Notes under the pieces: model-generated
What the model was told of the DNA's origin: nothing
Database searches by the model: none
What the model saw: the letters and a program-made list of their open reading frames with translations, nothing else
From: Minisyncoccia bacterium
Lineage (GTDB): Bacteria > Patescibacteriota > Minisyncoccia > UBA6257 > JAAZHW01
DNA: 64,000 nt
Assembly (NCBI GenBank): GCA_049720475.1
Contig: JBNASH010000033.1
Coordinates: forward strand, 3,784 to 67,783
Direction of reading: 5' to 3'
Part shown: piece after piece, positions 13,955 through 64,000 of the stretch
Numbering within the stretch: position 1 is the first letter of the stretch
How the letters are laid out: every line of letters starts with the position of its first letter
Made by a program: the position numbers and the translations under genes

Positions 13955-13984
13955 AAAAAGAAAAATCCGCCCTACTGGCGGATT
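13955..13984 (-). terminator. Intrinsic terminator of cassette A (stop codon in the loop)
   Basis: Minus strand AATCCGCC-AGTAG-GGCGGATT followed by TTTTCTTTTTT. The TAG stop of 13972..14352 lies in the loop. Confidence 0.7.
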
Positions 13985-14352
13985 GACTTTCTTAGAATTT
14001 CTACTCTTAAAAAGAAATTTCCTTCTTTTCTTTCAGCGATTTCTTCAATTTTTTCTTTTCCGACCGCCTTTTCTAACTCACCTACTTTAACCTCCACAAT
14101 TTGCAAAAATTTCTTTAAGGGCAACAGTTTGAAAACATTTACAGCTTCAACTTTCAATAATACTGGTTTAACTAATCTAACAATTCTGTTTTCTCTTTCT
14201 AAAATTATTTCTCTTCTTCCTCTCTTCTCCATTAATTTAATTAAACTTCTTTCGATTTTCTCTTCTTCTTTTTCTATGTGAGCCTTTTTTCTCCGCAGCT
14301 CCACTAGCTGCCTCCCTAATTTTTCCAACCGATGGTTTCTATTTTTTCTCAT
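13972..14352 (-). CDS. Hypothetical coiled-coil protein (126 aa), cassette A gene 2
   Basis: ATG at 14352 is preceded by GAAAGGAGGCAAA. N-terminal Arg/Lys/Glu coiled coil, then a beta-rich part. Any resemblance to phage Gam-like proteins is weak and unverified. Confidence 0.5.
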   Translation of the reverse strand: MRKNRNHRLEKLGRQLVELRRKKAHIEKEEEKIERSLIKLMEKRGRREIILERENRIVRLVKPVLLKVEAVNVFKLLPLKKFLQIVEVKVGELEKAVGKEKIEEIAERKEGNFFLRVEILRKSIRQ

Positions 14353-14611
14353 TTTGCCTCCTTTCAATCTTTTCAATAAAATCTCTTAAAACAAAAAATC
14401 GGCGTTTTTTTAGTTCATCCTGCCTCTGCTTCAAATTAGCAATTTTTTCATTGATTTCGTATAAATCCTGCATCCATCGCAACCGACTCAACTCTGCCCC
14501 CCAAAATTCCTGTTTGCTCAATAAACTTCTTTGTAGTTCCAATCTTTGCACCTCAGTTTCCAAAAAAGCAATCTCTCTACTGAGTAACAAAATAATTTCT
14601 CTTTCACTCAT
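14339..14611 (-). CDS. Hypothetical coiled-coil protein (90 aa), cassette A gene 1
   Basis: ATG at 14611 is preceded by TTAAAAATTTAATAAAGGAGGTTTTATAAA. Heptad-like sequence LETEVQRLELQRSLL...ANLKQRQDELKK. Confidence 0.55.
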   Translation of the reverse strand: MSEREIILLLSREIAFLETEVQRLELQRSLLSKQEFWGAELSRLRWMQDLYEINEKIANLKQRQDELKKRRFFVLRDFIEKIERRQNEKK

Positions 14612-14656
14612 TTTATAAAACCTCCTTTATTAAATTTTTAATTTTTGCTAACTTTA

Positions 14657-14684
14657 ATATTACAATTTTTTATTTATTTGTCAA
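14657..14684 (-). promoter_or_regulatory. Consensus promoter TTGACA-16-(TG)TAATAT of cassette A
   Basis: Minus-strand TTGACA 14684..14679 and TGTAATAT 14664..14657, about 45 nt upstream of the ATG at 14611. Confidence 0.6.
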
Positions 14685-14715
14685 CGATTACTTCCTATCT
14701 TGCTTTTAATAATTT

Positions 14716-16023
14716 TTACCAATTGAAAATCAATTTAATGGTTCTCATTATAATTGCCAAATCAAACCAAAAAGATTGATTGCGAATATAATACAAATCA
14801 TATTCAAATTTTTTTAATTCATCTTCCAAACAAGCGGCATAACGATAATTTAATTGCGCCCAACCAGCCAAACCAGGCTTGATTAAATTTCTCAAATAAT
14901 AAATTGGCTTTTCTTTCACGCATAAATCAAAAAGTTCTTTTTCAATCGGCCGCGGCCCAACAAAAGACATTTCTCCTTTCAAAATATTAACTAACTGCGG
15001 TAATTCATCTAAATGCGTCTTTCTCAAAAATTTTCCCACCCTCGTAATTCTTTCATCATTCTCTTTTGACCATCGCGATGAATTAGAAACATTTTGATAC
15101 ATTGAACGAAACTTATAAATTTTAAACAACTTGCCATTTTGGCCAACACGCCAAGAAGAATAAAAAATTGGCCCCGCAGAATCAATTTTTATTGCCAAAA
15201 TAATCAAAGGCCAAAACGGCAAACTCACAACTAAAAAAATCAACGCCAAAATAAAATCGCAAACATCTTTAATAAAAAGATTAATTTTTTGATGATAGAG
15301 ATTAAAGTAATCCAAAAACCAATTTTCATCAACAAAATTTAATGGCACGCACTTAAAAATCAACGAATAAAAATCAGCCGTATCATAAATCTCAACTTTT
15401 TTAAACATCATCTTTAAAAGCACGTCCTTTAATTCTTTCTGAGAAGATAAATTATCAACCACAATCACTTTAATGCCATCTTTTTCAAACATTCTTTCCA
15501 CATCTTCCTTTTTTATGCCATCAATTTTTTCAATATGTGTTATAAGTTTATAACCCAATTGAGGTGATTCTTCTAAGTGTTTTTTGATTTCCTTTATTTC
15601 TTCGCTTTCGCCGATTAATAAAGTTTTATAAACCAGATGTCGAGAGAAAACCGAATAAAAAACTAGCCGCCAAACCAAAACAAAAACAGAAGAAAAAACA
15701 ATAATCAAGATTAAATTGGTTTTTGGCGTAATGATGGGGTAAAGATAAAAAATGATAATGGCTAAAACAACATTAATGATCTGTAATTTTGTTAAAGAAG
15801 ATATTATTTTTTTTCTTTCCCTAAAATTTATTAACTCATAAAAATGTCCTATGTAAAAAATAAAAATCCAAACTAAAAAAATTATGGAAAAAAGCTTCAA
15901 GTGAATAATTAAATAATCAGCGCTTAAATTTCTAATAATCGCCATTAAATAAAGTGAAAAATAAAAACAGATGATGTCGCCTATCACCAAAATAATTTTT
16001 CTAATTTTTTCCGCGAAAGACAT
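14716..16023 (-). CDS. Polyprenyl-phosphate sugar phosphotransferase (WbaP/EpsL-type bacterial sugar transferase)
   Basis: N-terminal TM bundle plus a C-terminal domain with GPIFYSSWRVGQNGKLFKIYKFRSM...DELPQLVNILKGEMSFVGPRP. Confidence 0.85.
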   Translation of the reverse strand: MSFAEKIRKIILVIGDIICFYFSLYLMAIIRNLSADYLIIHLKLFSIIFLVWIFIFYIGHFYELINFRERKKIISSLTKLQIINVVLAIIIFYLYPIITPKTNLILIIVFSSVFVLVWRLVFYSVFSRHLVYKTLLIGESEEIKEIKKHLEESPQLGYKLITHIEKIDGIKKEDVERMFEKDGIKVIVVDNLSSQKELKDVLLKMMFKKVEIYDTADFYSLIFKCVPLNFVDENWFLDYFNLYHQKINLFIKDVCDFILALIFLVVSLPFWPLIILAIKIDSAGPIFYSSWRVGQNGKLFKIYKFRSMYQNVSNSSRWSKENDERITRVGKFLRKTHLDELPQLVNILKGEMSFVGPRPIEKELFDLCVKEKPIYYLRNLIKPGLAGWAQLNYRYAACLEDELKKFEYDLYYIRNQSFWFDLAIIMRTIKLIFNW

Positions 16024-16034
16024 ATTCGTCTTTA

Positions 16035-16940: not shown

Positions 16941-16945
16941 AATTT

Positions 16946-18241: not shown

Positions 18242-18302
18242 GGCAAATTAGTTTTATTCTAATCTAAAATAAATTATTTTCAAGCAATTTTTGTTTTTAT
18301 TG

Positions 18303-18375
18303 TCCCCCCGGCAGGACTCGAACCTGCAACTTTCTGCTTAAAAGGCAGCTACTCTACCAATTGAGTTACGGGGGG
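18303..18375 (-). tRNA. tRNA-Lys (anticodon UUU), CCA not encoded
   Basis: Hand-folded cloverleaf: CCCCCCG/CGGGGGG acceptor, anticodon loop CTTTTAA, T-arm GCAGG-TTCGAGT-CCTGC. Confidence 0.9.
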
Positions 18376-18767: not shown

Positions 18768-18773
18768 AATTTT

Positions 18774-20174: not shown

Positions 20175-20995
20175 AATTGAAATAAATTAAAACAATTTTC
20201 TGTAGTTATTTCAGCAATTTTATTTAAAGACATTTTTTTGATTTTGGCAACTTTTTCGGCAATAAATTCCACAAAAATCGGCTCATTTCTTTTTCCTCGA
20301 TAAGGAACCGGTGCGACATAAGGACAGTCTGTTTCTACTAATAATTTATCCAAGGGCAAAGAGGCGATAATATTATCATAACTTTCCGTAAAAGTAATCA
20401 CGCCTGGAAAAGAAATATAAAATCCGTGTTGAATAAATTCTTTAGCCAGTTTTAAATCGCCGGAAAAAAAATGAACCACTCCACTCCGAACACTTTTTTC
20501 ATTAAATCCATAATTTTTTAAAATTTCTAAAGCATCAAAGTAAGCATCTAAATTTTTGCTGGCGCGAAGATGCAAAACTAAAGGTTTTTGAATTTCTTTG
20601 GCAAATTCTATTTGTTTTTTAAATTCTTCCTTTTGCTTTTCTCTGGCTTCTTTTGATGAGTTATGAAAATAATCCAAACCACATTCGCCCACTCCTACTA
20701 TTTTCTTGCTTTGCGCCAATTGAAAAAATTTCTCTTTCATAAAAAATTCAACCTCGCTTTCTCCCTCATTTGGATCTCGAGATTCAAAAAGATGAATAGG
20801 ATGAAGTCCTATTACCGCATATAAAAAATCATATTCTTCTGCTAATTCCAATGCTTTTTGGGATAATAAAAAATTAGAACCAATATTAATGGCCCAAATA
20901 TTTTTCTGCTTCATCCGCTCAATGACTTCTTTTCTATCATTATCATAAGCGGCAAATTGCAAATGGGCGTGAGAATCAATTAGAAATGGTTTCAT
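20171..20995 (-). CDS. tatD: TatD-family metal-dependent hydrolase/DNase
   Basis: LIDSHAHLQF..., GECGLDY, LVLHLR, VETDCPYVAP. Confidence 0.85.
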   Translation of the reverse strand: MKPFLIDSHAHLQFAAYDNDRKEVIERMKQKNIWAINIGSNFLLSQKALELAEEYDFLYAVIGLHPIHLFESRDPNEGESEVEFFMKEKFFQLAQSKKIVGVGECGLDYFHNSSKEAREKQKEEFKKQIEFAKEIQKPLVLHLRASKNLDAYFDALEILKNYGFNEKSVRSGVVHFFSGDLKLAKEFIQHGFYISFPGVITFTESYDNIIASLPLDKLLVETDCPYVAPVPYRGKRNEPIFVEFIAEKVAKIKKMSLNKIAEITTENCFNLFQL

Positions 20996-23070: not shown

Positions 23071-24117
23071 TTACGGCAAAGGGGGTGCTTCTGGCTCTCC
23101 TTTTTTATTAATCTCTTTAATTGTTTCTTCAATAACAATAATAGTTGGCAAAGCAATTAAAACGCCCACCACGCCACCTAATTTAGCACCAATCAATAAA
23201 CCCAAAATAACAATTACTGGATTAAACCCAATGGTTTTCTTCATCGTCAAAGGAATTACCAAATCATTTTCTAATCGCTGAATTAAAATAAAAGCAAGTG
23301 CTGTCCATAAGGCCAACGGCACTGATTGCGTTAAAGCAACTAAAGTTGCTACAATGCCAGCCAAAATTGGACCAACCACTGGAACTAATTCACAAAACGC
23401 ACCAAATAACGCCAAAACAAAAGCGTATCTTACACCCAACAAAAGCAAAGCCGCTAAATCCAAAACACCAATGAAAGTACTTAACAAAAGCTGAACCCGC
23501 AACCATTTCCCCAATCGCAATTTCGAACGATACCAAATTTTTAATACTGTTGTTTCAATGCTTGCCGGCAAAACAAATTTTATAAAATCCGCCACACCAT
23601 CTTTTTTAAGCAAAAGATAAAAGGAAATTAAAAAGACGGTTACAACCGAAACAATGCCGCCACCCAAATTAAACAAAATAGCAAAAAACCTGCCGGCATC
23701 CTGAAACAAAGAACCTTGATAAGTTGATAAGAAATCCAAAATTTTCTCACCTAATTGAGAAGTGGTGGCTGACCCAAAAAACTTTTCTGAAAATCCTGGC
23801 AATAAATTACCAATGTTTAAAATTTGCTCATAAACAATCGGAAAAGAAAAATACAAAATGGCAGCCAAAAGAAGCAAGATGCCTAAATAAATAATAATTG
23901 CGCCCAAAAAACGCGGCCAGCGCTTTTTTTCAAACCAATCAACCAAAGGCGTTAAAGCCGCCGCTACAATAATCGCCACAAAAAGCATCACAAAAACTGA
24001 CCTTAAAACATAAATTAAGGCCAAAATAATCACAAGCAAAAACAACCTCCAAAAACTCATCCACGATATTTCCAATGTTTGCCTCTCTTTAGCCATCAGT
24101 TTTATTATAAAAATCAA
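23071..24117 (-). CDS. AI-2E family transporter (PerM/UPF0118); probable true start at 24096
   Basis: 8-TM profile with a Pro/Gly-rich C-terminal core (ELVPVVGPILAGIVA...). A TATAAT at 24104..24109 lies 7 nt from the ATG at 24096. Confidence 0.7.
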   Translation of the reverse strand: MIFIIKLMAKERQTLEISWMSFWRLFLLVIILALIYVLRSVFVMLFVAIIVAAALTPLVDWFEKKRWPRFLGAIIIYLGILLLLAAILYFSFPIVYEQILNIGNLLPGFSEKFFGSATTSQLGEKILDFLSTYQGSLFQDAGRFFAILFNLGGGIVSVVTVFLISFYLLLKKDGVADFIKFVLPASIETTVLKIWYRSKLRLGKWLRVQLLLSTFIGVLDLAALLLLGVRYAFVLALFGAFCELVPVVGPILAGIVATLVALTQSVPLALWTALAFILIQRLENDLVIPLTMKKTIGFNPVIVILGLLIGAKLGGVVGVLIALPTIIVIEETIKEINKKGEPEAPPLP

Positions 24118-24182
24118 AAATAATTTAGCAAATAGAAACTCTGGGAAACTCAGTTTTTATTCTTTAAATCCTGGGTTATAAT
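24104..24182. promoter_or_regulatory. Divergent promoter pair giving leaderless mRNAs
   Basis: Minus-sense TATAAT at 24109..24104 is 7 nt from ATG 24096. Plus-sense TATAAT at 24177..24182 is 6 nt from ATG 24189. Confidence 0.55.
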
Positions 24183-24188
24183 AAAAAT

Positions 24189-25274
24189 ATGAAAATTTTA
24201 CTTGTTATTACACACGGAAAAATTGGCGGAGCTACTAATATGGTCTATTGGCTGGCGAAAGGAATAAAAGACGCTGGAGAAAATGTTGTGGTGAGTTTTG
24301 GTGAAGGAGAATATCTTAGACAAAAACTCGAAAAAGAAAATATTCCCTACTACAATTTCAAATGGCTCAAGAGAACGCACAATCCTTTTGCTAATCTCTG
24401 TTTTATTGCGGAAATTAAAAAATTCCTGGACAAAAACCATTTTGACATCATTCATTTGAATTCCACCAATGCTTTATTTGGTGCAATTGGTGCCAAACTT
24501 TCTCAATCAAAACCAAAAACCATTTTTACTTTTCACGGTCTTTCAATTTTAGATCCTAATTATAAAAAACTTTTCCTTTTGAAAATATTTTATTGGTTAT
24601 TATTCAAATTTTTGCTAATTTTTGTTGATATTCCAGTTTTTGTTTGTCAAAAAAATTTAGAAATTGCGCAAAAAATCGGCCTAATAAAAAAGGGAGTGGT
24701 AATTTACAATGGGATAGAAAAACCTGAATTTTTAGACAGAGAACGAGTTAGAAAATTTTTTGAAGAAAAATTAAAAATGTCTTTGAAAGATATTTTTGTT
24801 ATCGGCTCAATTGGCAGATTAGACTATTCAAAAAATTATGAGTTTTTAATTGGGATTTTTCCAGAAATTCTAAAAATTAAAGAAAAGGCCATTTTAATTA
24901 TTATCGGCGAAGGACCAGAAAGAAAAAAATATGAAAATTTAATTGCAAATTTGAATTTGAAAAATAAAATTTTTCTTATCGGAGAAATTCCAAACGCTTC
25001 ACAATATATAAAAGGTTTTGATTTGTTTGTTTTGCCATCGCGTTATGAAGGATTATCAGTTACTCTAATCGAAGCTGTATTTGCTCAAATACCAATTTTA
25101 GCTTCAGATGTAGGTGGAAATAAAGAAATTGTCGGGGAAGAACATACTTTCAACCTCAATAACAAACAAGATTTTTTAGAAAAAATTAAAAAAATTAAAA
25201 ATTCAGAAGAAAGAGGAAGTGTTTTCAAAATTGAAGAAATGATCAAGAAATATTTATCTTTTTATTTATCCTAA
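24189..25274 (+). CDS. Glycosyltransferase, GT4 (GT-B fold)
   Basis: GGATNMVYWLAKG N-terminal half. C-terminal EGLSVTLIEAVFAQIPILASDVGGNKEIV matches the E-x7-E region. Confidence 0.8.
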   Translation: MKILLVITHGKIGGATNMVYWLAKGIKDAGENVVVSFGEGEYLRQKLEKENIPYYNFKWLKRTHNPFANLCFIAEIKKFLDKNHFDIIHLNSTNALFGAIGAKLSQSKPKTIFTFHGLSILDPNYKKLFLLKIFYWLLFKFLLIFVDIPVFVCQKNLEIAQKIGLIKKGVVIYNGIEKPEFLDRERVRKFFEEKLKMSLKDIFVIGSIGRLDYSKNYEFLIGIFPEILKIKEKAILIIIGEGPERKKYENLIANLNLKNKIFLIGEIPNASQYIKGFDLFVLPSRYEGLSVTLIEAVFAQIPILASDVGGNKEIVGEEHTFNLNNKQDFLEKIKKIKNSEERGSVFKIEEMIKKYLSFYLS

Positions 25275-26465
25275 TAATTTCTTCCATTGATCAATAATCT
25301 TCTCTGCTGAAAAATCAACTGCTCTTTCTTTTGCTTTTTTTGAATATTCTTTTCTTAGACTCTCATTCTTTAAAAATTCCTTTAAGGTTTCAACCCAAAT
25401 TTTTTCCTTTTCTGTTAGAGGATCTTCTGCGTTTTGAAATTTATTCTCGAAAGCTGGCATTAAAATTCCGTATTCTCCAAATTCTGGTTTTTGAATCTTT
25501 TTTAACAAATTAGTATTCGGGGCCAAAATTTCCCTCGGACCAGATTGGCAATCAGAACTAATTATCGGAACCCCACACGCCAAAGATTCTAATAAAACCA
25601 TGGGAAAGCCCTCCCACAAAGAAGGTAAAACAAAAAGAGCTGATTTTGCTATAAATTTAAAAGGATTTTTTTGGAATCCCAAAAAGTAAACATCAAAATC
25701 CGAACTTAAATCATCCTTATCCCACATAAAAGTCTTTAAACCAAGTTCTGTGGAAATTTTAAATAAATAATTTCTTAATTCACCATCTCCCAATATAACA
25801 AGTTTTAACATTGGAAAATCGTCTTTTAATGCTTTATAAATTCTAAGCAAAAACCACTGCCCCTTTTGTCTAGTTAAACGCCCAATATTTATAAGGACAG
25901 GATTGCAAAAAATATCCTCATATTCTTTTAATTCTTCCTGCATTTTTTCTTGTATATCTTTAAAATCAATTGGATTATAAATAACTTTAATTTTTTGTGG
26001 TTGAATTTTATAGAATTTTTCAAGTTCACTTTTTATACCCTCAGAAACCGAAATTATTATATCCGCTTTAGGATAAAGAATTCTTGTTAATAAATTATAT
26101 GGATGCAACTTTGACCTTCCTACAGATTGGGACATATGTACAGAAATAATGGTTTTATGTTTACTTAACAAAGAAGCTAAAATATTAACATAATTTGCTC
26201 GCTCTAACATCGAAACTATTATAGAATCACTCCGAATTTTTTTAGCTAATCTCCAAGCATAAATTGGAATAAAAAGACTCTTCAAAATAGGACTGAATTT
26301 AATGTGATGATCTGATAAGAATTCTATTTGTTGGTTATTTAATTGGTACTTTACATCTTTTTCTAATAGGAAAATTTTAGAAAAATTCAAAAAATTGTAG
26401 AGATTTATAGCTACTCTTTCAGCGCCTCCAAAGGCTAATGAATTAATAAGAATGTATCTATTCAT
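25266..26465 (-). CDS. Glycosyltransferase, GT4 (GT-B fold)
   Basis: FGGAERVAINL..., and PSLWEGFPMVLLESLACGVPIISSDCQSGPREIL. Confidence 0.8.
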   Translation of the reverse strand: MNRYILINSLAFGGAERVAINLYNFLNFSKIFLLEKDVKYQLNNQQIEFLSDHHIKFSPILKSLFIPIYAWRLAKKIRSDSIIVSMLERANYVNILASLLSKHKTIISVHMSQSVGRSKLHPYNLLTRILYPKADIIISVSEGIKSELEKFYKIQPQKIKVIYNPIDFKDIQEKMQEELKEYEDIFCNPVLINIGRLTRQKGQWFLLRIYKALKDDFPMLKLVILGDGELRNYLFKISTELGLKTFMWDKDDLSSDFDVYFLGFQKNPFKFIAKSALFVLPSLWEGFPMVLLESLACGVPIISSDCQSGPREILAPNTNLLKKIQKPEFGEYGILMPAFENKFQNAEDPLTEKEKIWVETLKEFLKNESLRKEYSKKAKERAVDFSAEKIIDQWKKLLG

Positions 26466-27400
26466 TTTATATACAAATAATAAATAATTTCTATAATGTG
26501 TCTGGCTTTATAAGGAGAAATAAGATAGATAAGCCATTTAAAATAGTTATGAAGTTTGGGGCTAAATTTTATGATTATATTTTCTAAATATTGAGATAGA
26601 TAATCTAAAAATTTTGCAAAAAAATTAATTTTTCCATTTAAAACTTTTTTTAGATCAACTTCGCTCACTTCTTTATTTTTTCTTAAATTGTCTGCTATTA
26701 AAAAAGTCAATTTTAGCTGCATTGGTCGTTGGACAGATATTCTACCTCTTCGATACTCTACTCTATATTTAAGAAGAGGTTCATTAATGAAGCCTATTTG
26801 GCACCCATTTAAAACCGCTCGTGCTAATAATTCGTAATCCTCAACTGTTTGAAATTGAGGACGATAATAATTCAATTTTGTAATAAAAGATTTTCTAAAA
26901 AACCAAGTAGGGTGCGGGATTGGACTTATACCGGCGCAAAGTTTTTTTATGATTGTTTCTTTTGTTAAGCTTTTCGATTCGTTCAAAATCTGATTTTGGG
27001 GATTTATAAAAATTACCTTGCTACCAACCAAATCAATTTGTGGATTTTGTTTCATGTAATTTAATTGTGTTTCGAATCTATGCAATAAAGCAATATCATC
27101 AGCGTCCATACGGGCTATAAATTCTCCTTCGGCTAAGGAAATTGCTTTATTTAATGATTGTGGCAATCCCAAATTTTTCTCATTAATAATCAATCTTGCT
27201 CTGTCATCGTTGTTTAAACAATTTTTTACGGCATTATAAACTCTCAAAAATTCCGCATCATCTTTTCCTGTATCTATAACAATTAATAATTCAAATTTTT
27301 TAAAAGTTTGATTGAGTACGCTCTTTATAGATTCCTGAACATATTCATCCTTCTCTTTAAATACGGGTAAAATTACTGAAAGAGTAATTTTGTGAAACAT
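26462..27400 (-). CDS. Glycosyltransferase family 2
   Basis: LSVILPVFKEKDEYVQESIKSVLNQTF...ARMDADDIAL (DxD). Confidence 0.85.
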   Translation of the reverse strand: MFHKITLSVILPVFKEKDEYVQESIKSVLNQTFKKFELLIVIDTGKDDAEFLRVYNAVKNCLNNDDRARLIINEKNLGLPQSLNKAISLAEGEFIARMDADDIALLHRFETQLNYMKQNPQIDLVGSKVIFINPQNQILNESKSLTKETIIKKLCAGISPIPHPTWFFRKSFITKLNYYRPQFQTVEDYELLARAVLNGCQIGFINEPLLKYRVEYRRGRISVQRPMQLKLTFLIADNLRKNKEVSEVDLKKVLNGKINFFAKFLDYLSQYLENIIIKFSPKLHNYFKWLIYLISPYKARHIIEIIYYLYIK

Positions 27401-27434
27401 GCCTCTATCATAAAAAATAACGACGCTATAAAAA

Positions 27435-28460
27435 TTAAGCTTTAAAAATTCTTCTTAATTTAAACTTTATTCTACTTTTGTAAATTTTTTTTAAATCCTT
27501 CCACGATAAATCCCTTTTTATCCCATCAATTAGATCACATGTATAAAAACATGGCTGACATTTTTTTGATATAATTATATTTTTAATTTCTTCCACTTTA
27601 TTTGAATTTTGTTGAAATAAATTTATTAAACTTAAGTCATAATCCTTTAAATTGCCCAGACACAAATCTGCAACTAATCCATCACAAGGATAAACATTTC
27701 CATCGCTATCTATAACTATTTTTTTTATTAATCCATAACATGGAAAAATTGTTTGACCATTATTAATATTGCGAATTAAATAATATTGGGGGAGGTATTC
27801 TGGATAAATATGTGAGAGTTTTTGAAGGATCGTCTCCAACTCTCGCAAGTCTTTTGAAGAAAATTTTGTAAAACCTTGATTGCCATCTAAATCCCCATAT
27901 CTAGAATCCATACGCCCAATTCCCATAATAATATCTACCCCCCGACTTCTCCAATAATGAAAAAATGGTATTGTTTCCTGAATATTAAAAGGGAAGGCTG
28001 TATAACTTAAAGAAAATGTGATATTATTCTTTTTTAAAAAATAAATTAGATTTTCTATTTTTTGATAATTTCCCACTATATTGCGAGAAAAATCATGAAT
28101 TTGCTGAAATCCATTGCAAGACAAGGAAATATCAAAAGGAATTTTCTTTTTTTTCAATAAAAGTACGTCTCTTTTTATCTTATCTATTAAAATTCCATTT
28201 GTGGCAAAAGATATTCTTGCTCCTGAGGTGCGATGAATAATTTCTGCAATTTCAACAAAATTTTCTTTTAAAGAAACTTCACCTCCTGTTAAATAAACTA
28301 TTTTAGCTTTTACATTGGAATAGATTTTTTTTAGGCTTTCTATCTTTAGAATTTCATCATTGCTCTTTTTTATCTCACCTCGCCAGATAGAACATGTGAT
28401 ACATTTCGAATTGCATCGCCATGTTAAATATTGAATTATAGTGTCAAATTGTAATGACAT
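27435..28460 (-). CDS. Radical SAM enzyme with a SPASM/twitch-like Cys-rich C-terminus
   Basis: CNSKCITCSIW (CxxxCxxC), then FPCYG...GNVYPCDG...CQPCFYTC. Confidence 0.8.
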   Translation of the reverse strand: MSLQFDTIIQYLTWRCNSKCITCSIWRGEIKKSNDEILKIESLKKIYSNVKAKIVYLTGGEVSLKENFVEIAEIIHRTSGARISFATNGILIDKIKRDVLLLKKKKIPFDISLSCNGFQQIHDFSRNIVGNYQKIENLIYFLKKNNITFSLSYTAFPFNIQETIPFFHYWRSRGVDIIMGIGRMDSRYGDLDGNQGFTKFSSKDLRELETILQKLSHIYPEYLPQYYLIRNINNGQTIFPCYGLIKKIVIDSDGNVYPCDGLVADLCLGNLKDYDLSLINLFQQNSNKVEEIKNIIISKKCQPCFYTCDLIDGIKRDLSWKDLKKIYKSRIKFKLRRIFKA

Positions 28461-29102
28461 TTATTTTTGTTTTTTTCGACACTTAAAATAAAAAGTTTTC
28501 ATATAGCTTAAATTTCTAACACATTTAAAGTTTTCGATGATAAAATAACGTCCTAATATTTTTGAAATTTGTACAAAAGTAAAATGATGTGGATGAGGCT
28601 TATCTTCCCAAATGCCAAATATCTCTAAAATTTTTTCAATAATTAAAAAGGGTTTGGAATAAGTATTGATTAAAAAATTTAACTCCCCGTCATTTTTTAA
28701 TATTCGATGCATTTCTCTTAAACCAAGCTCTGGATCTTCGATATGATCTAAAACGTTGATACAAAAAACTATATCAACATAATCGTCTTCTAAAGGAATA
28801 GCCTCCGCGGTAGCATTAATAAATTTAGTATTAGAATCTAAAGTATATTTTTTACTATATAAATTTATAAGAGGGTCTAATCCTATTTTTTCTTTGGCAT
28901 CCGTAATATAATGTACAACCCCCCTTGGTCCACATCCAACATCAATAATAGTTTTGTTTTTGGTATTAATACCACTGAGCAAATATTTCTTCCATCTTTC
29001 TTCTTCAACTTCATTCAATGCTAAGGAATTCCAAAAATTTAACTCTGCATCTTGAGCCTCCTTCCATCTATTTTTTTTATCTTTTTTTTGTATTATTACC
29101 AT
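28461..29102 (-). CDS. Class I SAM-dependent methyltransferase
   Basis: IIDVGCGPRGVV motif I, DIVFCINVLDHIEDP, and LKNDGEL. Confidence 0.8.
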   Translation of the reverse strand: MVIIQKKDKKNRWKEAQDAELNFWNSLALNEVEEERWKKYLLSGINTKNKTIIDVGCGPRGVVHYITDAKEKIGLDPLINLYSKKYTLDSNTKFINATAEAIPLEDDYVDIVFCINVLDHIEDPELGLREMHRILKNDGELNFLINTYSKPFLIIEKILEIFGIWEDKPHPHHFTFVQISKILGRYFIIENFKCVRNLSYMKTFYFKCRKKQK

Positions 29103-29128
29103 ATTTTCATAAAACTTTTTAAATGCTG

Positions 29129-39654: not shown

Positions 39655-39760
39655 ATTTTGTGACTGATTGGCTCGGCGGGCGGAATTCCCTCCGAATATC
39701 CCTCTTCCGCCTACCTCGCACTGAAGCGGAAGCGAAAAGGACGATCTCAAATTTTTATTT
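39655..39760. other. GC-rich structured spacer (candidate ncRNA or decayed tRNA-like remnant)
   Basis: GGCGGA...TCCGCC and CTTCCGC...GCGGAAG stems share the TCTTCCGCC segment, so they are mutually exclusive. The minus strand ends in ...CCGCCCGCCGAGCCA. It stands out from the AT-rich flanks. Confidence 0.3.
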
Positions 39761-48623: not shown

Positions 48624-48656
48624 AAAAAACAAAAAGGGACTCAAATGAGTCCCTTT
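48624..48656 (-). terminator. Intrinsic terminator of cassette B
   Basis: Minus strand AAAGGGACTC-ATTT-GAGTCCCTTT followed by TTGTTTTTT. Confidence 0.75.
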
Positions 48657-49077: not shown

Positions 49078-49103
49078 TTTTTTCCTCCTTTTAAATTTTA
49101 AAA

Positions 49104-49628: not shown

Positions 49629-49679
49629 TTCTTCCTCCTTTTATTTAATTTTTAAAGATCTCTTTTCTTTGCCGCCTAA

Positions 49680-49707
49680 ATTATAATAGATTTTAATCTT
49701 TTGTCAA
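49680..49707 (-). promoter_or_regulatory. Consensus promoter TTGACA-16-TATAAT of cassette B
   Basis: Minus-strand TTGACA 49707..49702 (overlaps the stop of the upstream rluD-like gene) and TATAAT 49685..49680. Confidence 0.65.
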
Positions 49708-51038: not shown

Positions 51039-51121
51039 TTTGACCTCCTTTAAATTTTTAAATTGCTAATTTTATTATAAAGTGTTTAAAAAAATAAAAA
51101 AACCCACTAGCAGGTTTTAAG

Positions 51122-51396: not shown

Positions 51397-51424
51397 TTGA
51401 CAAAAAATAAAAAAGTTCTAAGAT
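51397..51424 (+). promoter_or_regulatory. Promoter TTGACA-16-TAAGAT
   Basis: TTGACA 51397..51402 and TAAGAT 51419..51424, about 37 nt upstream of the ATG at 51462. Confidence 0.55.
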
Positions 51425-51461
51425 TAAATTGGTTTTTTAAAAATTTTTTAGGAGGTAAAAA

Positions 51462-52463
51462 ATGAATAAAAAAAGAAATGAAAAAGTTTTTCCCCTATTG
51501 GAACCCATTCATACTATTCAACCAGATACTCTGACTGGAATCGTTTTTGGAGATGACCCTGAGATAGATGCCAGCGATTTTCCTTTAGTTTTCATCGATG
51601 CTGATGCCACTATTATGCCTATTACGCTTTTTAAGGGGTATGGAGAAATTGGTAGTGATGCTTTTGTTTCCAATTGTTTTTTATCCAAAGCAACCATAAA
51701 AGATGGAGTTAAAATTATTGATAGTAGAATTTTTACGGCGGTAATTGAAGAGGGATCAGTGGTAATCGACTCCACCATCGAAGGTTCAAAGTTTGGACCG
51801 GGCTGTTATGTTAACGGGTCTATAATTATGGAAAGCGTTTTCGGCAAAGAAGTGGTTGTTTGCGGAAATTCGCATATTAATTGCTCAAGGATTTATGATG
51901 AGGTTGTATTGGGACCACAAGTTGTTGTAGACAATGCTAAAATTGAAAATTTTTCTTATTTAGAAACCGGAGTAAAAATTATAGGACACAAGGGAAAAGA
52001 GCAAGCAATAGTAATTATTAAATCAAAGGTTTATATTGGGGCTGGTGCTTGGATTATTGGGCCGGCACTGATTGATCATAATTGTTACATTGATAACAAT
52101 GTTATACTTGATCCAGGAAAAAATTCTATTGGTATTTTTATTCCGCCATTTTCTTGGGTTCGAAAAAGCAATAATGCAGAAGGATATGAAATTTTAGAAA
52201 AGAGGGCATGCTATTTACTCGATGGGTTGTGGTATGTATCAAAAGCAGAACCGATAAAAATCAAAGAGTTGGTGGATGTAAAAAGAAAAATAAGATTATT
52301 AGAAGAAGAAGTTGCGAAAAAAAGAATAGATATCAAGGAAATATTGCAAGAACCAAATCATTTAACTCAAAATCAACCACCAGTTAGTACTCTCCTTGAA
52401 AAAAATGGATTGGAAAAATTTAGAAATTTCCTTCAATCAATCATAGAAACCCTGGTCAATTGA
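51462..52463 (+). CDS. Left-handed beta-helix (hexapeptide-repeat) protein with a C-terminal coiled-coil tail
   Basis: About 10 imperfect [LIV]-x-x-x-x-x repeats (VKIIDSRIFTAVIEEGSVVIDSTIEGSKFG...VYIGAGAWIIGPALIDHNCYIDNNVIL). ATG preceded by TTTTAGGAGGTAAAAA. Confidence 0.6.
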   Translation: MNKKRNEKVFPLLEPIHTIQPDTLTGIVFGDDPEIDASDFPLVFIDADATIMPITLFKGYGEIGSDAFVSNCFLSKATIKDGVKIIDSRIFTAVIEEGSVVIDSTIEGSKFGPGCYVNGSIIMESVFGKEVVVCGNSHINCSRIYDEVVLGPQVVVDNAKIENFSYLETGVKIIGHKGKEQAIVIIKSKVYIGAGAWIIGPALIDHNCYIDNNVILDPGKNSIGIFIPPFSWVRKSNNAEGYEILEKRACYLLDGLWYVSKAEPIKIKELVDVKRKIRLLEEEVAKKRIDIKEILQEPNHLTQNQPPVSTLLEKNGLEKFRNFLQSIIETLVN

Positions 52464-55020: not shown

Positions 55021-55071
55021 TTAAATTTTTAACGTTTTTTATTTTACTTCTTTTTCAAAATTTTTCAACTT

Positions 55072-56388
55072 TTAAAGTGAAGACGCGATATAACGCTTGG
55101 GCAATAATTTTTCATCCATTGGAAGCGTAAAATAGAAAGTGGAACCGCGATTCTCAATTGATTCAGCCCAAATTTTTCCTCCGTGCGCTTCAACAATATT
55201 CTTAGTGATGTAAAGACCAAGTCCTGTTCCTTCGGTTTCATATTTTAATACATTGGTAGCACGGAAAAATTTATTAAATAATTTGGGAATTTCATCTTTA
55301 GGAATGCCGATACCAGTGTCTGTAACGGAAACCTCAACATAAGGCGGCTTTTTTTCGATTTTGATAATAATTTGCCCATTTTCAACATTGTAACGCAAAG
55401 CGTTTTCAATAAGATTTTGAATAACGATTTTTATTCGCATTGGATCAAATTTGAAAGGATCCAAACCATCAGCTGGCGGCTGAAAATAAATTTTAATTCC
55501 ATGTCTTTCAGCTAAAGAAACATACCCTTCTATGACTTTATGGATTAGAGCAATTAAATCACTTTGCACAAATTCATAACCAAATTTACCTGCTTCAATA
55601 TTAGCCGTATCAAGCAAATCATTAGCCAATTTCAAAACTTTATCCGTTGCTTCCAATGTTCTCTTTAATAAATCCCTCTGGGTTTCAGTCAAATTTTTAT
55701 TATCTTCACCCAGCAAAGTCTCCAAACTCCAGCGAATACCCGATAAAGGCGTTCGCATCTGATGGGCTGCTACCGTCAAAAATTCTGATTTGGTCTTTAA
55801 AATTTCCTCTTCTCTTGTCCTGTCCTTAATAACTTTAAAAAATCCCAAAATTTTTCCTTTTTGATCCAAAACTCGAATAGTGGTTACAACTAATTCTATA
55901 AATGGATCAGTAATTGAAATTTCCATTATATTGGGGAAAACAGCTGGATCGCTTTTCCAAGTCATCGTTGGTGCTAAACTGGGAAAAAGAACCTGGGCCA
56001 ACAATTTGGTTTTTGAATTTTTAGCCCACTCAGGAGTAACAATCTGACCTACAATGTCAATCGCTTTTAAACCAAAAAGTTCTTCAGCAGCGCTATTAAA
56101 AACAGTGATTCTAAAATCGCTGTCATAAGCAATAATTGCTTCGGTAAAATTAGCAATTATTGTTTTAATTTGATTGCGTTCGGCCAAAAGCTCGTAGTGT
56201 CTAATTGTATTGCGTAAAGTTAAAAAGAAGCTGATTAGCAAAAAAACTATTATGACTACAAGACCAATTGTTTCCCAAATCCCTTCGCCAAAATACAAAA
56301 TAATGCCTAGTAAAAATAGCATCACAACCAACATCATCCAAAACAAAATCATTTCTGGTAATGACAAATAGGCTAAAATTTTCTTCAT
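55072..56388 (-). CDS. Sensor histidine kinase (2 TM, PAS, HisKA, HATPase_c)
   Basis: H-box AAHQMRTPLSGI, N-box NLIENALRY, DTGIGIP, GTGLGLYITKNIVEAHGG. A TATAAT lies 7 nt upstream of the ATG. Confidence 0.9.
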   Translation of the reverse strand: MKKILAYLSLPEMILFWMMLVVMLFLLGIILYFGEGIWETIGLVVIIVFLLISFFLTLRNTIRHYELLAERNQIKTIIANFTEAIIAYDSDFRITVFNSAAEELFGLKAIDIVGQIVTPEWAKNSKTKLLAQVLFPSLAPTMTWKSDPAVFPNIMEISITDPFIELVVTTIRVLDQKGKILGFFKVIKDRTREEEILKTKSEFLTVAAHQMRTPLSGIRWSLETLLGEDNKNLTETQRDLLKRTLEATDKVLKLANDLLDTANIEAGKFGYEFVQSDLIALIHKVIEGYVSLAERHGIKIYFQPPADGLDPFKFDPMRIKIVIQNLIENALRYNVENGQIIIKIEKKPPYVEVSVTDTGIGIPKDEIPKLFNKFFRATNVLKYETEGTGLGLYITKNIVEAHGGKIWAESIENRGSTFYFTLPMDEKLLPKRYIASSL

Positions 56389-60051: not shown

Positions 60052-60124
60052 TGTTTAAAAAATTTTAAATTAATCTTAATTCGCGACATTAATCTATATT
60101 ATAGACAATAATTTATTTATGACA

Positions 60125-60153
60125 AACAAAAAAGCCCATAAAAGGGCTTTTTG
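60125..60153 (-). terminator. Intrinsic terminator
   Basis: AAAGCCC-ATAAAA-GGGCTTT with flanking A/T runs, downstream of 60172..60990. Confidence 0.7.
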
Positions 60154-60171
60154 CTTTAAATCTCAGCAATT

Positions 60172-60990: not shown

Positions 60991-61036
60991 ATTGTCCCTC
61001 TATAATATATAACGAAAAACTTGCCAAAATATTACC

Positions 61037-62710
61037 TTAATAACCAAACCATTGACGATTGGCAATAGCCCGCGTTAAAGGACCAAAATAACCGGTGGCT
61101 GGCAGACCATTTTTCTGCTGGAATTTTTGAATGGCTGCCTTGGTTAGATCCAAAAAATTACCAGTGATTAATCTTTCGCTATAAAGATCGGGTTCTTTTT
61201 CAGAAAGCATCTTTTGCAAACACTTTACTTCATTATCATTTCTTAAACCATAATACAAGTCTCTTTGGAAAAATGAGCAAGAAAGATTTGTTTGATTCAT
61301 TGCGTTCAATTGAGCAATAAGCGTTGATAGCTGGGCTTTTAATTGAGCAATCCGTTGAGTGAGCTGCTCTATTAAAGCAGAATTATTGGAAGCGCTGCTA
61401 GAAATTTGAGCATCATACTTGAATAAAACGCCGCCGGAAGAGCTATCGGTAATTATTGGTAAAAGATAAAGAGTATTGGTATCAACGCCGAAATCATTAA
61501 TCGAGATTGTCCCTTTTTTATTCTCACTACTAACCGTTTCAATCTTTTTGTTGTTACTTTTATCAGTGGTGATATAAACTAAAATAAATTGGGTGTCTTG
61601 AGGAAATTCATAATAAATTTTTAAATCACCTCGGCCGCCACTAATTTTAATCCAGTTGCCAGCATATAAATTTAAATAAGTGCTAGCAGTTAAAGAAACC
61701 ACGCCATATTCCGGCAAATAGGTAGTATAGGGATAAATATGAAAGTTTTTTAAATTAGCATTATCAAAACAATAAAGTTTGCCCAACGAACAATCATTAA
61801 AAAGGAGGGTAATCAACCAATTTTTGAAAATAGTATTAAAATCTTCCGAATAACCATTTTTTGCTAAAGCATAATTGATGGAAGCAATACCAGTTAAATT
61901 AGAACGCAAAGAGTCAACTAAAATTTTAATGCCATACTTCTCAACAATGTATTCTGCTAAAAGATGGACCGCGGCATAATCGCTGTTTGTACCTCTAAAT
62001 TCTAACAAAGAAAAGCTTGGGTTTTGACGTAAATCATTAAGATGTTTTTCTAAAAAACTGCCGCTTAAATTAGTGTTATAACCCAAAAAGGTGGAGAGAT
62101 AATCAGAACGCGCTTCGGCTAACCAGCGCTCATCGTCAGAATTAACAAAAATCCCCTTTTGATTAAACGAAATAAGATGCAATACTTCATGAGAAAGATA
62201 ATAGCCAAGTTGATTAATCGACGCGTCCCAAAAAATACTCGTGCTTAAATAAACCATCTCATGCTGATTGGAAAAATTGCCAGAGGCGGCTGGCAAAGAA
62301 TCAACAAAGCGAGCATAACCAACATAATTTTCTTTCAAAGGATGAATTAAAACATAAATGTGGTAATCATTGTCATAGCCGGGAAGCGCTTCAGAGCCAA
62401 AAGTAGCAACAATTCGTGGATAATCGTACTGCTCAAAATAAGTAGCTAAGGTAGCAAATTTGGCGCTGATGGTGTTTTGATTATTGAAAGAAAGGCTTTG
62501 CCACCAATTAGTATCAACGAAAAAATTAAGTTTATTGGTTTGATAAACAAGGGTGGCATTAAGTTGATTGCGCGAATAATAATCATAATCGCTTTCAACA
62601 TAAAAAACGCTCTGAGAATTAATTGATTGCGCAAAAACAGCTGGCGAGAGAAAAACAAAAAGTGCCGCGATAATAAAGATAATTTTCCAATTAAATATCT
62701 TTTTTGGCAT
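61037..62710 (-). CDS. Secreted protein with an HExxH motif and a C-terminal peptidoglycan-binding domain (track ORF extends to 62746)
   Basis: Signal peptide MPKKIFNWKIIFIIAALFVFLSPAVFA, SHEVLHLISF, and C-terminal QKFQQKNGLPATGYFGPLT. TTGAAA-17-TATAAT ends 7 nt before the ATG at 62710. Confidence 0.65.
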   Translation of the reverse strand: MPKKIFNWKIIFIIAALFVFLSPAVFAQSINSQSVFYVESDYDYYSRNQLNATLVYQTNKLNFFVDTNWWQSLSFNNQNTISAKFATLATYFEQYDYPRIVATFGSEALPGYDNDYHIYVLIHPLKENYVGYARFVDSLPAASGNFSNQHEMVYLSTSIFWDASINQLGYYLSHEVLHLISFNQKGIFVNSDDERWLAEARSDYLSTFLGYNTNLSGSFLEKHLNDLRQNPSFSLLEFRGTNSDYAAVHLLAEYIVEKYGIKILVDSLRSNLTGIASINYALAKNGYSEDFNTIFKNWLITLLFNDCSLGKLYCFDNANLKNFHIYPYTTYLPEYGVVSLTASTYLNLYAGNWIKISGGRGDLKIYYEFPQDTQFILVYITTDKSNNKKIETVSSENKKGTISINDFGVDTNTLYLLPIITDSSSGGVLFKYDAQISSSASNNSALIEQLTQRIAQLKAQLSTLIAQLNAMNQTNLSCSFFQRDLYYGLRNDNEVKCLQKMLSEKEPDLYSERLITGNFLDLTKAAIQKFQQKNGLPATGYFGPLTRAIANRQWFGY

Positions 62711-62775
62711 TTTTTTGATTATAAAATAAAAAAGATGAGGTTTCAATAATGAAAGGAAAATGAAAGGAAAAAGAA

Positions 62776-62806
62776 AAGCGGCTGCGTTGTCCCAACGCAG
62801 CCGCTT
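62776..62806. terminator. 13-bp bidirectional terminator at the left edge of the GC-rich island
   Basis: AAGCGGCTGCGTT-GTCCC-AACGCAGCCGCTT, with A-run/T-run flanks, 5 nt after the stop of 62811..63605. Confidence 0.8.
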
Positions 62807-62810
62807 GTTT

Positions 62811-63605
62811 TTAATTTTCTTCTTGGAAGTCCCTCAGGGACAGGCCCCGAGGGTTTTTTTCTACCTCATCCGCTGCCCGAAGGGGCAATTCCTTGCCCCT
62901 TCTCGCCTCAACCACCCTTCTTTTTTCTTTTATTTTTTTATTTTTAGAAGGGGAAGGGGAGGCAGGGGAGGCAGGCTCCGGTGGTTGTGGCCGAATTAGT
63001 TGCGGTGGACGGGTTGGGATTGGGACTTTTTTAAGCCCCGCTTCCCATTTGGGGTTGGGAAGTCTCCGATCGGACTCAAAGAGTTCGACCGAGACTTTCA
63101 GGATTTCCTCGTCAACCTGACCGACGAGGAAATCCCGCAGGGATTCCTTATCCCGCACATAGTGCGGGATATCAATCATTACTCTCTCTCTTTCTAAGAG
63201 AGAGTAATGATTTCCCTGACGGGCTACCCCTAGGTAGTCCGCCACCAGTTTCCGGCCATGGAACCGTACAACGGTCCCATTCCGGAAAAGAAGTAACCAC
63301 TTCCCCACTTTATTGTTAAAGTGGGGAGTGATAAGTTTGTTCTCCCCAACCACTACAGCCCAGCCCTTGGGACCGGGCACAGAAAGGGAAATCTGAAACC
63401 ACTGGGGCTGCCCCAGTTGGGGCAAAAACACCCAAGGTTTCACAATTCCCCGCTCTACCACCACGCACGGCACTTTCAGCCGTGCTTTTAAAGGATCAAA
63501 GTGGACGCCCTGAAGGGCGCCACTTTTAATCCTCTCCAGAATGTCCTGCGGTTTGGGAATGCGTTCCCAAACCGCCCAGATTTTCAAAAAATTACTCCTG
63601 ATCAT
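62811..63605 (-). CDS. Hypothetical protein (264 aa) of the GC-rich island: beta-rich N-domain, Pro-rich linker, basic tail
   Basis: ATG preceded by TTAAAAATTTAATAGGAGGTTTTAA. Plausible protein composition. The ORF is overlaid by many perfect hairpins (see findings). Confidence 0.55.
   Translation of the reverse strand: MIRSNFLKIWAVWERIPKPQDILERIKSGALQGVHFDPLKARLKVPCVVVERGIVKPWVFLPQLGQPQWFQISLSVPGPKGWAVVVGENKLITPHFNNKVGKWLLLFRNGTVVRFHGRKLVADYLGVARQGNHYSLLERERVMIDIPHYVRDKESLRDFLVGQVDEEILKVSVELFESDRRLPNPKWEAGLKKVPIPTRPPQLIRPQPPEPASPASPSPSKNKKIKEKRRVVEARRGKELPLRAADEVEKNPRGLSLRDFQEEN
63101..63212. repeat. Three consecutive perfect inverted repeats (13, 10 and 16 bp stems) inside the ORF
   Basis: GGATTTCCTCGTC-N9-GACGAGGAAATCC (63101..63135); TATCCCGCAC-ATA-GTGCGGGATA (63149..63171); AATCATTACTCTCTCT-N7-AGAGAGAGTAATGATT (63174..63212). 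Confidence 0.9.
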
Positions 63606-63628
63606 TTAAAACCTCCTATTAAATTTTT

Positions 63629-63672
63629 AACAAGGTGTGGCCCGGGCCGATAGCCCTAAGGTTCACCTTGTT
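63629..63672 (-). promoter_or_regulatory. 5-prime-UTR stem-loop immediately upstream of the SD leader
   Basis: AACAAGGTG...CACCTTGTT 9-bp stem enclosing GGCCCGGGCC and GGGC-N5-GCCC sub-helices. A TATTGACTTTTT promoter-like box lies at 63701..63712. Confidence 0.5.
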
Positions 63673-63726
63673 GCTGTTTTAAGAATATCATAAAAATACA
63701 AAAAGTCAATAGGGTTGAAGAATAAA

Positions 63727-63746
63727 AGCGGGCTTAAAAGCCCGCT
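63727..63746 (-). terminator. Intrinsic terminator with the stop codon in the loop
   Basis: Minus strand AGCGGGC-TTTTAA-GCCCGCT followed by TTTATTC. The TAA of 63734..63931 lies in the loop. Confidence 0.7.
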
Positions 63747-63931
63747 TTTTTTCTTTCGCCCTTTTCCTTCTTCCTGTCCTCTAGGACAGAAAGAAGGACC
63801 ATTAAAAAGACTGAGAACAGCATCAGTCCCCCAGTCAACCCCGTCCATCCAACCTTTTCCTGTCCCCACGGCCGAAAGGCGTAGAGAACCAGATTCTCAA
63901 TTAATAACAAAAACAATAAAAAATATTTCAT
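63734..63931 (-). CDS. Small 2-TM membrane protein (65 aa) of the GC-rich island
   Basis: ATG at 63931 preceded by GAAAGGAGGTTTTTTG. MKYFLLFLLLIENLVLYAF...GLMLFSVFLMVLLSVL...KKEKGERKKAGF. A TATTGACTTTTT box lies at 63989..64000. Confidence 0.55.
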   Translation of the reverse strand: MKYFLLFLLLIENLVLYAFRPWGQEKVGWTGLTGGLMLFSVFLMVLLSVLEDRKKEKGERKKAGF

Positions 63932-64000
63932 CAAAAAACCTCCTTTCTTTTTTTTAAAAAGCTTCTTATATTCCAGCATAAAAATTTAAAAAAGTCAATA

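Follow-up and report, generated by a model that had tools for sequence, protein, structure and literature searches.

Conserved AGGAGG-led genes in a Minisyncoccia bacterium with a CCUCC-less 16S rRNA tail

Background

Pairing of a Shine-Dalgarno (SD) sequence with the anti-SD of 16S rRNA is the textbook means of finding start sites, and lineages without an anti-SD are assumed to have abandoned the SD. In the portions considered here of two studies that cover Parcubacteria, only 48% of the 16S genes of Parcubacteria contain the anti-SD motif according to Tsurumaki et al., who consider SD helices unlikely to form in lineages without it (PMC9297842), and Campbellbacteria and Wolfebacteria are placed in a class iv of anti-SD-less, SD-scarce bacteria with 2-5% of SD genes and fully degenerate tails (PMC10783764). 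The present study concerns a stretch of 64,000 nt (hereafter the window) from a Minisyncoccia bacterium (GCA_049720475.1, contig JBNASH010000033.1, positions 3,784-67,783), in which a fixed set of eight genes keeps a perfect canonical SD, AGGAGG, where the 16S rRNA cannot pair with it by Watson-Crick rules. The window is assigned to Candidatus Paceibacterota/Minisyncoccia (Patescibacteria, candidate phyla radiation, CPR) by homologues of TyrS, AlaS and S9 and by an identical NCBI protein, and the genomes nearest to it bear the names Candidatus Paceibacterota or Minisyncoccia, in agreement with membership in the Parcubacteria/Paceibacterota.

The window resembles the Parcubacteria of these published portions by its CPR lineage, its CCUCC-less tail, its small SD minority and the variation of tails among relatives, and it displays both traits of class iv (PMC10783764) and of the Parcubacteria subgroup (PMC9297842), namely a tail without CCUCC and few SD genes. 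As both studies cover it, a non-SD majority alongside a CCUCC-less tail is not new. The SD share of the window is nevertheless higher, 12% (8/67) versus 2-7%, and the same portions give percentages and tails, a fixed orthologous SD set under purifying selection not being among the reports they contain. The conserved SD set, with its own promoters, A/U block, raised G+C content at third codon positions (GC3) and fast-evolving proteins, is the new point over this background.

Two other described systems are close in part. In Bacteroidia, the ribosomes are SD-blind, rpsU and also prfB are SD-led, and the start contexts are Kozak-like, with A at -3 (PMC6847099, PMC9976891, PMC13000453). As in Bacteroidia, most genes of the window are SD-less with an A-rich context and A at -3 (the Kozak-like signal of PMC6847099), and a tiny set, which in Bacteroidia serves a special regulatory route, has a strong SD. 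The anti-SD of Bacteroidia is however intact and sequestered by bS21, bS18 and bS6, whereas that of the window is mutated, and their SD-led gene is rpsU (bS21) or prfB, whereas those of the window are non-ribosomal and encode PIN, CPBP, beta-helix, holin-like, coiled-coil and unassigned proteins. Genomes of the Actinobacteria/Deinococcus type, e.g. mycobacteria, mix leaderless with SD-led initiation (PMC4633059); the window shares with them many first genes whose -10 box is only a few nucleotides away from the ATG, and the presence of leadered genes carrying an SD, but their anti-SD is canonical and their operon-internal genes generally have an SD, while here the internal genes are SD-less and the anti-SD is degenerate.

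The case raises a concrete and testable question, namely what reads AGGAGG in these cells and why on these genes alone. It bears on the replacement of initiation mechanisms during genome reduction, on gene calling and start prediction in CPR genomes and on the way in which CPR bacteria express envelope, lysis and toxin-type genes, which may have a part in interactions with a host.

Results and discussion

A discrete class of AGGAGG-led genes

For 67 curated starts of the window, we calculated how stably positions -22 to -3 pair with the canonical tail GAUCACCUCCUUA. The distribution of duplex energies is bimodal, with eight starts at -11.4 to -12.8 kcal/mol and the other 59 at -7.8 kcal/mol or weaker, most of them weaker than -5 kcal/mol, and GGAG is found in only one of these 59. 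Few SD genes are likewise seen in the relatives. A previous reading of the window made from the letters alone (hereafter the sequence-only reading) had reported this class and proposed to score starts for SD strength; its eight upstream strings were retrieved verbatim at their starts, and the scoring over the window bears it out, with eight strong against 59 weak starts. It had ascribed a perfect AAGGAGG to all eight, which holds for six, the leaders of the genes starting at 63605 and 51462 reading TAGGAGG; the motif common to all is therefore AGGAGG. This hexamer followed by N3-10-ATG occurs 10 times versus 1.85 expected, a count reached by 0/100 shuffles, and among all GGAGG sites of the window only these eight precede an intergenic or operon open reading frame (ORF) of at least 65 aa.

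The eight genes form five transcription units, two of them bicistronic with an SD of its own for each cistron. Their 5' untranslated regions (5'UTRs) of 25-70 nt are nearly pure A/U, and consensus promoters of sigma-70 type are located 30-70 nt upstream, with terminators after the units (Table 1), so that the self-contained promoter-to-terminator units described by the sequence-only reading are largely right.

Conservation among relatives

Relatives with 97% identical 16S rRNA hold syntenic orthologues of all eight genes. The same-genus contigs compared were L014, L015, L137 and L138 for the pair of coiled-coil-like genes (cc1 and cc2), L003 and L002 for the PIN, CPBP and beta-helix genes, and L140 and L141 for the right end. 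All of the 22 orthologous leaders keep the hexamer (22/22), 4-9 nt from the start codon, and identity over the 20 nt that flank it is only 41%. Near-clonal relatives are excluded by the 97% 16S identity together with the 64-99% identity of neighbouring proteins. No gain of an SD was seen among the inspected orthologues of non-SD genes. As AGGAGG is under purifying selection in lineages without CCUCC, the SD would be functional here and not a relic of recent transfer, and the class, judged from these comparisons, appears to be a separate inherited class of leadered mRNAs rather than recent cargo.

The last point bears on the proposal that these are recently acquired or mobile-element genes, which is not supported. 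Besides the syntenic orthologues, integrases are absent, and searches of PHROGs and NCBIfam and four viral-contig scans gave no phage link, the single weak PHROG match (E=1.4e-4) being to a family without assigned function. Among the usual signs of mobile origin, atypical base composition is present, whereas patchy distribution, mobility genes and phage homology are not observed. The identity of promoter plus leader to the relatives is 77% for cc1 and 90% for the 63605 gene, versus 74-81% for neighbours, while the corresponding coding sequences are just 59-66% identical. Promoters and leaders thus match those of the neighbouring housekeeping genes in conservation while the coding parts diverge, which argues against the replacement of whole cassettes. 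The alternative proposal of a dedicated expression design fares better: the class is conserved and selected, and the mechanism itself is plausible rather than demonstrated. The sole exception to synteny is L139, a more distant syntenic contig, which does not have the cc genes.

The 16S rRNA tail and its trailer

At the former anti-SD position of the window 16S rRNA gene, CCUCC is replaced by UCUUU (3572-3576, minus strand). The earlier statement that the minority AGGAGG design mismatches the encoded tail is upheld, and so is the coexistence of initiation designs, of which there are two or more. The UCUUU tail is common to the window, L014, L015 and L138, the L137 variant is UUCUU, and CCUCC is found in none of the five; in L014, L015 and L138, the UCUUU tail and SD-led orthologues occur on one contig. 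Past GGAUCA, the tails differ between close relatives with the same helix 45 (UCUUU, UUCUU, UUUUU, UUCUA), and one contig with this helix 45 has a near-canonical UCUCC. Positions 1535-1539 are all-pyrimidine in the five tails linked to SD-led orthologues (window, L014, L015, L138 and L137) and in L069, and include one A in L029 (UUCUA). A metagenome scan for non-canonical tails revealed a great diversity, on contigs too short for linking other tails to SD-led genes.

A high degree of organisation is seen in the 16S 3' trailer (window 3400-3568, minus strand; L014 12218-12330; L015 ~15195-15300; L138 ~20310-20390). In a short hairpin, the former anti-SD tract pairs with a downstream GGA(W)U, as UCAUCU/GGAUGA in the window and, through a compensatory indel, as AUUCU/GGAAU in L137 and L029. 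Two further hairpins covary and are separated by an invariant linker, GGUCCUUAGGUCGG, and a processing stem pairs the trailer with the 16S 5' leader (CTTCATTGTTTCGTGTCGTCC / GGGCGGCACGAAACAATGAAAAAG). In L015 (11348-15200), the 16S gene is split by large insertions, including a LAGLIDADG homing-endonuclease ORF and a group II intron fragment near the 3' end; the window 16S gene is free of them.

How AGGAGG might be read

The reading that we favour, with a probability of about 45%, is that the conserved SD class is read by the altered 16S tail through wobble pairing in the canonical register. Purifying selection would hold class membership and the hexamer despite the loss of CCUCC, and the 30S subunit would dock on the long leaders through the 16S 3' tail. 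In the pairing of GGAGGU with A1534-U-C-U-U-U, three G·U wobbles would join two A-U pairs and a single G-C pair; each of the three C-to-U changes of the tail still allows pairing with G, and the unstructured A/U-rich block just upstream of the SD would help as a landing site. A small set of fast-evolving genes, comprising cell-envelope and lysis-like genes, the PIN-domain protein, the CPBP protease and the beta-helix protein, would thereby have an initiation route separate from that of housekeeping genes. The canonical spacing speaks for the tail as reader, and so do the U that follows GGAGG in 15/22 orthologous leaders and would pair with the conserved A1534, and the retention of pyrimidines at 1535-1539. 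Compared with canonical SD initiation, the conserved purine-rich GGAGG-type motif expected 4-10 nt upstream of the start is present, at 4-9 nt, and its Watson-Crick partner CCUCC is lacking.

Several observations weigh against this reading. AGGAGGU pairs with the native tail at -3.0 to -3.7 kcal/mol, versus -11 to -12.5 kcal/mol with the canonical tail, and with native-tail energies the eight SD leaders overlap the non-SD genes, so that the two classes are not separated. AAAGAUGAU, the perfect match to the tail, would reach -9.0 kcal/mol; it is nevertheless unused, although it could be reached by G-to-A changes expected to be favoured in an AT-rich genome. The tail past GGAUCA drifts among close relatives, and TAAGGAGGT persists in L137, although the UUCUU tail of this relative would place an A·C mismatch in the canonical register. 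Some transcripts that appear leadered, e.g. those of rpsM and infA, have no SD, and the initiation model does not account for the rise in GC3 and the fast divergence seen in the SD-led genes. Finally, the tail was read from the gene and the position of the mature 3' end is assumed; an end near ...AUCAUCUUUA would keep wobble pairing viable.

Some of these facts can be turned to the account of a different reader with a true CCUCC-like specificity in place of the encoded UCUUU tail, which we consider a less probable, though serious, explanation. Candidates are specialised ribosomes with a second 16S allele encoded elsewhere in the genome, a mature 3' end that is longer or otherwise processed, another RNA, or a GGAGG-binding protein. 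Such a reader would fit the invariance of all six hexamer positions in 22/22 leaders, the constancy of the SD while the tail drifts, and the neglect of a better tail-matched motif when the native tail provides just ~-3.5 kcal/mol. The conserved covarying hairpins of the trailer and the invariant GGUCCUUAGGUCGG also mean that the mature 16S end could be unusual. On the other hand, no CCUCC-bearing tail or RNA was found in ~200 kb of this genus, and CPR genomes normally have a single rRNA operon, which counts against a second 16S allele. Two specific candidates were rejected. A displaced anti-SD in the trailer, located after an inserted hairpin at GGUCCUUAGGUCGG, would pair with AAGGA only, leaving out the last GG, and the strands of hairpin 1, one of which is CUCC-like, covary, so that selection there is on structure and not on the CUCC sequence. 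As for another CCUCC-bearing RNA, the GATCACCTCC matches in the fetched loci are 23S antisense or lie in a structured region, possibly RNase P RNA. That the ribosomes of this CPR lineage, or some specialised ones among them, need no complementary 16S tail to recognise AGGAGG and rely on a different RNA, a protein or a non-canonical mature 3' end is rather improbable; if true, this tail-independent recognition would amount to a private translation channel for a fast-evolving regulon of envelope, lysis and toxin-type genes.

It is also unlikely, slightly more so than a different reader, that the SD-led genes are portable cassettes exchanged among CPR lineages, some of them with a near-canonical UCUCC tail, the SD being neutral here and being kept, with the consensus promoter and the terminator, since it works in any recipient. 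Relatives with the same helix 45 and a UCUCC tail do exist, but CPR relatives with such tails are also SD-scarce (0-1 strong SD per 3-13 genes). The SD-led genes have a raised GC3 in the window, L003, L014, L015 and L138, and a weakly raised one in L137, the identity of the proteins is 42-56% versus 64-99% for neighbours, a 250-nt recombination tract lies in the beta-helix gene between otherwise identical contigs, and functions of conflict or lysis type (PIN, CPBP, holin-like, SLT) would suit exchanged genes. Against exchange stand the strict synteny in the relatives, L139 aside, the promoter and leader identity equal to or above that of neighbours, with divergence confined to the coding sequence, and the failure to find integrases, notable PHROG matches or viral-contig relatives; moreover, a neutral GGAGG should decay under AT pressure, yet all 22 leaders keep it.

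Chance purine runs, or decaying and now functionless relics of an SD-using ancestor, a notion to which the decay of the anti-SD and the loss of the SD from most genes of this lineage could lead, are effectively refuted by orthologue conservation (10 occurrences versus 1.85 expected, 22/22 leaders kept versus 41% background, spacing of 4-9 nt, and class membership stable in both directions across relatives) and are very improbable.

The A/T leader block

The SD leaders share a T-run/A-run/T-run block of the TTTAAAAATTTAA type, and the similarity that the sequence-only reading had seen among them stands in part. The exact 12-mer TTAAAAATTTAA occurs five times in the window versus 1.22 expected, and the shift-tolerant identity among SD leaders is 0.62 versus 0.53 and 0.49 for non-SD intergenic leaders (permutation p=0.0005); with one mismatch allowed, the excess of the 12-mer is gone (21 versus 20.8 expected). 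As for its occurrence outside the window, the block is found in the SD leaders of the relatives, its register not being fixed. Orthologous SD leaders are 41% identical to each other, the same value as non-orthologous ones (41%), so that the block is a class-level A/U-rich feature and not a gene-specific element. A/U-rich blocks directly 5' of an SD are known translational enhancers, and the block may play this role here.

One exact copy of TTAAAAATTTAA (55021-55032, minus strand) abuts the 5' end of tRNA-Ala(GGC), after a TTGAAA-16-TAAAAT promoter, and the motif is thus not confined to SD leaders. We rejected an extensive pairing of A/T block plus SD with the altered tail, the complement of which is TTTAAAGATGA: it is achieved by the CPBP leader (51038) alone, at -10.6 kcal/mol, and the TTTAA-to-GGAGG spacing differs by 0-5 nt among the other leaders.

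Unusual evolution of the SD-led genes

SD-led proteins are 42-56% identical between relatives versus 64-99% for neighbouring proteins, and their rate of evolution is about double. Their genes also differ in composition, a correlation with GC that the sequence-only reading had proposed to test: GC3 is 0.38 versus 0.27 (p=0.004), five of the six window genes with the highest GC3 are SD-led, and the rise is found again in L003, L014, L015 and L138; the one SD-led gene of L137, with a GC3 of 0.34, falls in the range of its neighbours. Over 5.8 kb, the Logan contig L001 matches the window exactly save 69 substitutions (27 amino-acid changes), which cluster in 250 nt of the C-terminal part of the beta-helix gene (window 52155-52403). 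This cluster is a localised recombination or hypervariable tract; since most of its substitutions are conservative, a diversity-generating retroelement does not seem to be the cause. The raised GC3 and fast divergence fit a fast diversification of, or allelic exchange within, the coding regions, and they also agree with some foreign or otherwise unusual history.

Initiation without SD in the majority of genes

Adenine dominates the context of the non-SD starts (73% have A at -3 and 63% have A at -13), T stands at -1 in 66%, and G is scarce (8%). Among 31 non-SD first genes, -10-like hexamers are located 5-9 nt before the ATG in 10 cases versus ~4 expected (p=0.004), e.g. at 2972-3361, 23071-24096, 24189-25274, 55072-56388, 61037-62710 and tyrS, and this position of the box suggests that many of these genes are expressed from leaderless mRNA. 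Operon-internal genes follow the preceding gene at gaps of -17 to +11 nt, without SD, and are tightly coupled to it. A rule by which every leadered mRNA would carry an SD is ruled out by the rpsM and infA operons, which are apparently leadered and SD-less.

The sequence-only reading had presented the SD-led genes as all accessory or unknown. The class is indeed non-core in the window, but accessory status does not define it, many accessory genes having no SD: pilins, a glycosyltransferase island, a VirD4-like ATPase, PrsW, HSP20 and several ORFs without assigned function. Conversely, thyX (thymidylate synthase) is SD-led in L138 (4691-5341, TAAGGAGG), so that the class is not strictly confined to accessory or unassigned genes. 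The polysaccharide-synthesis island at 24000-30400 (glycosyltransferases, a radical SAM/SPASM protein, a methyltransferase and a flippase) has the lowest GC of the window, 28-29%; since it holds no SD-led gene, an odd composition does not by itself predict an SD. The TrwB/VirD4-like coupling ATPase, with a treble-clef zinc finger (31325-32992), is chromosomal and SD-less and may belong to a DNA-uptake or transfer system.

The start of rpsI is preceded by TTAAAAATTTAAAGATG (window 5790-5806, minus strand), inside the end of the rplM coding sequence, with only 2 nt between it and the ATG. Over its last 10 nt (TTTAAAGATG), it is perfectly complementary to the native 16S tail CAUCUUUAAA. This upstream sequence is kept in L014, L015 and L137, and the case is a single one.

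Features of the window

Table 1 Coordinates of the 16S rRNA gene and of the features of the SD-led units
Feature	Position	Strand	Remarks
16S rRNA gene	3569..5099	-	Full-length Rfam match; 3' end GGAUCAUCUUUAAA; no 23S gene after it
cc unit promoter, TTGACA-16-TAATAT	14657..14684	-	Sigma-70-like; kept in L014
AGGAGG of cc1	14621..14626	-	9 nt to ATG 14611; TTAAAAATTTAA ahead at 14630-14641
cc1, SD-led ORF, 90 aa, coiled-coil-like	14339..14611	-	No family match; AAGGAGG kept in L014 and L015 orthologues
AGGAGG of cc2	14357..14362	-	4 nt to ATG 14352; within the 3' end of cc1
cc2, SD-led ORF, 126 aa	13972..14352	-	Second cistron; GGAGG in L014, L015, L137 and L138 orthologues
cc unit hairpin, intrinsic-terminator-like	13964..13984	-	Closes cc1-cc2
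PIN-lipoprotein unit promoter, TTGACA-16-TATAAT	49680..49707	-	12/12 consensus positions
AGGAGG of PIN gene	49634..49639	-	5 nt to ATG 49628; TTAAAAATTAAA ahead at 49644-49655
PIN-domain protein, SD-led, 174 aa	49104..49628	-	Pfam PIN_4; L003 orthologue 49-51% identical, with TAAGGAGGT
AGGAGG of lipoprotein-like ORF	49084..49089	-	6 nt to ATG 49077
Small lipoprotein-like protein, SD-led, 137 aa	48664..49077	-	AAAGGAGG kept in L003 orthologue
PIN-lipoprotein unit hairpin, terminator-like	48633..48656	-	Closes the unit
TATAAT box of CPBP gene	51074-51079	-	~35 nt before ATG 51038
AGGAGG of CPBP gene	51044..51049	-	5 nt to ATG 51038; abutted by TTAAAAATTTAA at 51050-51061
CPBP/Rce1-like membrane protease, SD-led, 182 aa	50490..51038	-	Pfam; L003 orthologue 47-48% identical, with AAAGGAGG
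beta-helix gene promoter, TTGACA-16-TAAGAT	51397..51424	+	Kept in L003 and L002
AGGAGG of beta-helix gene	51450..51455	+	6 nt to ATG 51462
Left-handed beta-helix (hexapeptide) protein, SD-led, 333 aa	51462..52463	+	Pfam, NCBIfam; TAAGGAGG in L003, AAAGGAGG in L002
AGGAGG of holin-like ORF	63939..63944	-	7 nt to ATG 63931
Holin-like membrane peptide, SD-led, 65 aa	63734..63931	-	GC3 0.53; weak Pfam Phage_holin_2 match; L141 orthologue with AAAGGAGGT
Promoter-like TTGACT-16-TATTCT of 63605 gene	63682..63709	-	
AGGAGG of 63605 gene	63612..63617	-	6 nt to ATG; preceded by TTAAAAATTTAA (63619-63630) and a 5'UTR hairpin
SD-led ORF, 264 aa, no assigned function	62811..63605	-	GC3 0.55; AAGGAGGT in L140, TAGGAGGT in L141
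Strong terminator-like hairpin after 264-aa ORF	62776..62806	-	

An 80-nt GC-rich noncoding island at 39665-39745, within an AT-rich spacer, has a minus strand rich in GGA/GGAGGG and a plus strand rich in CCCUCC; it has a significant fold on neither strand and no Rfam match.

At the right end of the window, the holin-like ORF lies upstream of the unit of the 264-aa ORF, and its L141 orthologue comes after an SD-led SLT_2 lytic transglycosylase, a gene located beyond the window end. In the relatives, an SD-led run of four extends past this end (L141 8537-10864; L140 7794-10834), made of a 99-aa ORF, the SLT_2 lytic transglycosylase, the holin-like peptide and the 264-aa ORF, and flanked by peptidoglycan-binding proteins; in L140, a GC-rich 168-aa ORF replaces the holin-like gene. 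The run resembles a lysis or cell-wall remodelling module.

The 90 nt upstream of the 264-aa ORF are 90% identical to L141 and better kept than the gene itself. The 5'UTR contains a GC-rich stem-loop (window 63625-63672, minus strand; -22.6 kcal/mol, z=-2.6) that precedes the A/U block and the SD, and the same region is located just upstream of position 10001 in L140 and L141. An Rfam search of the 63605 leader gave nothing above threshold; the stem-loop may be a regulatory element.

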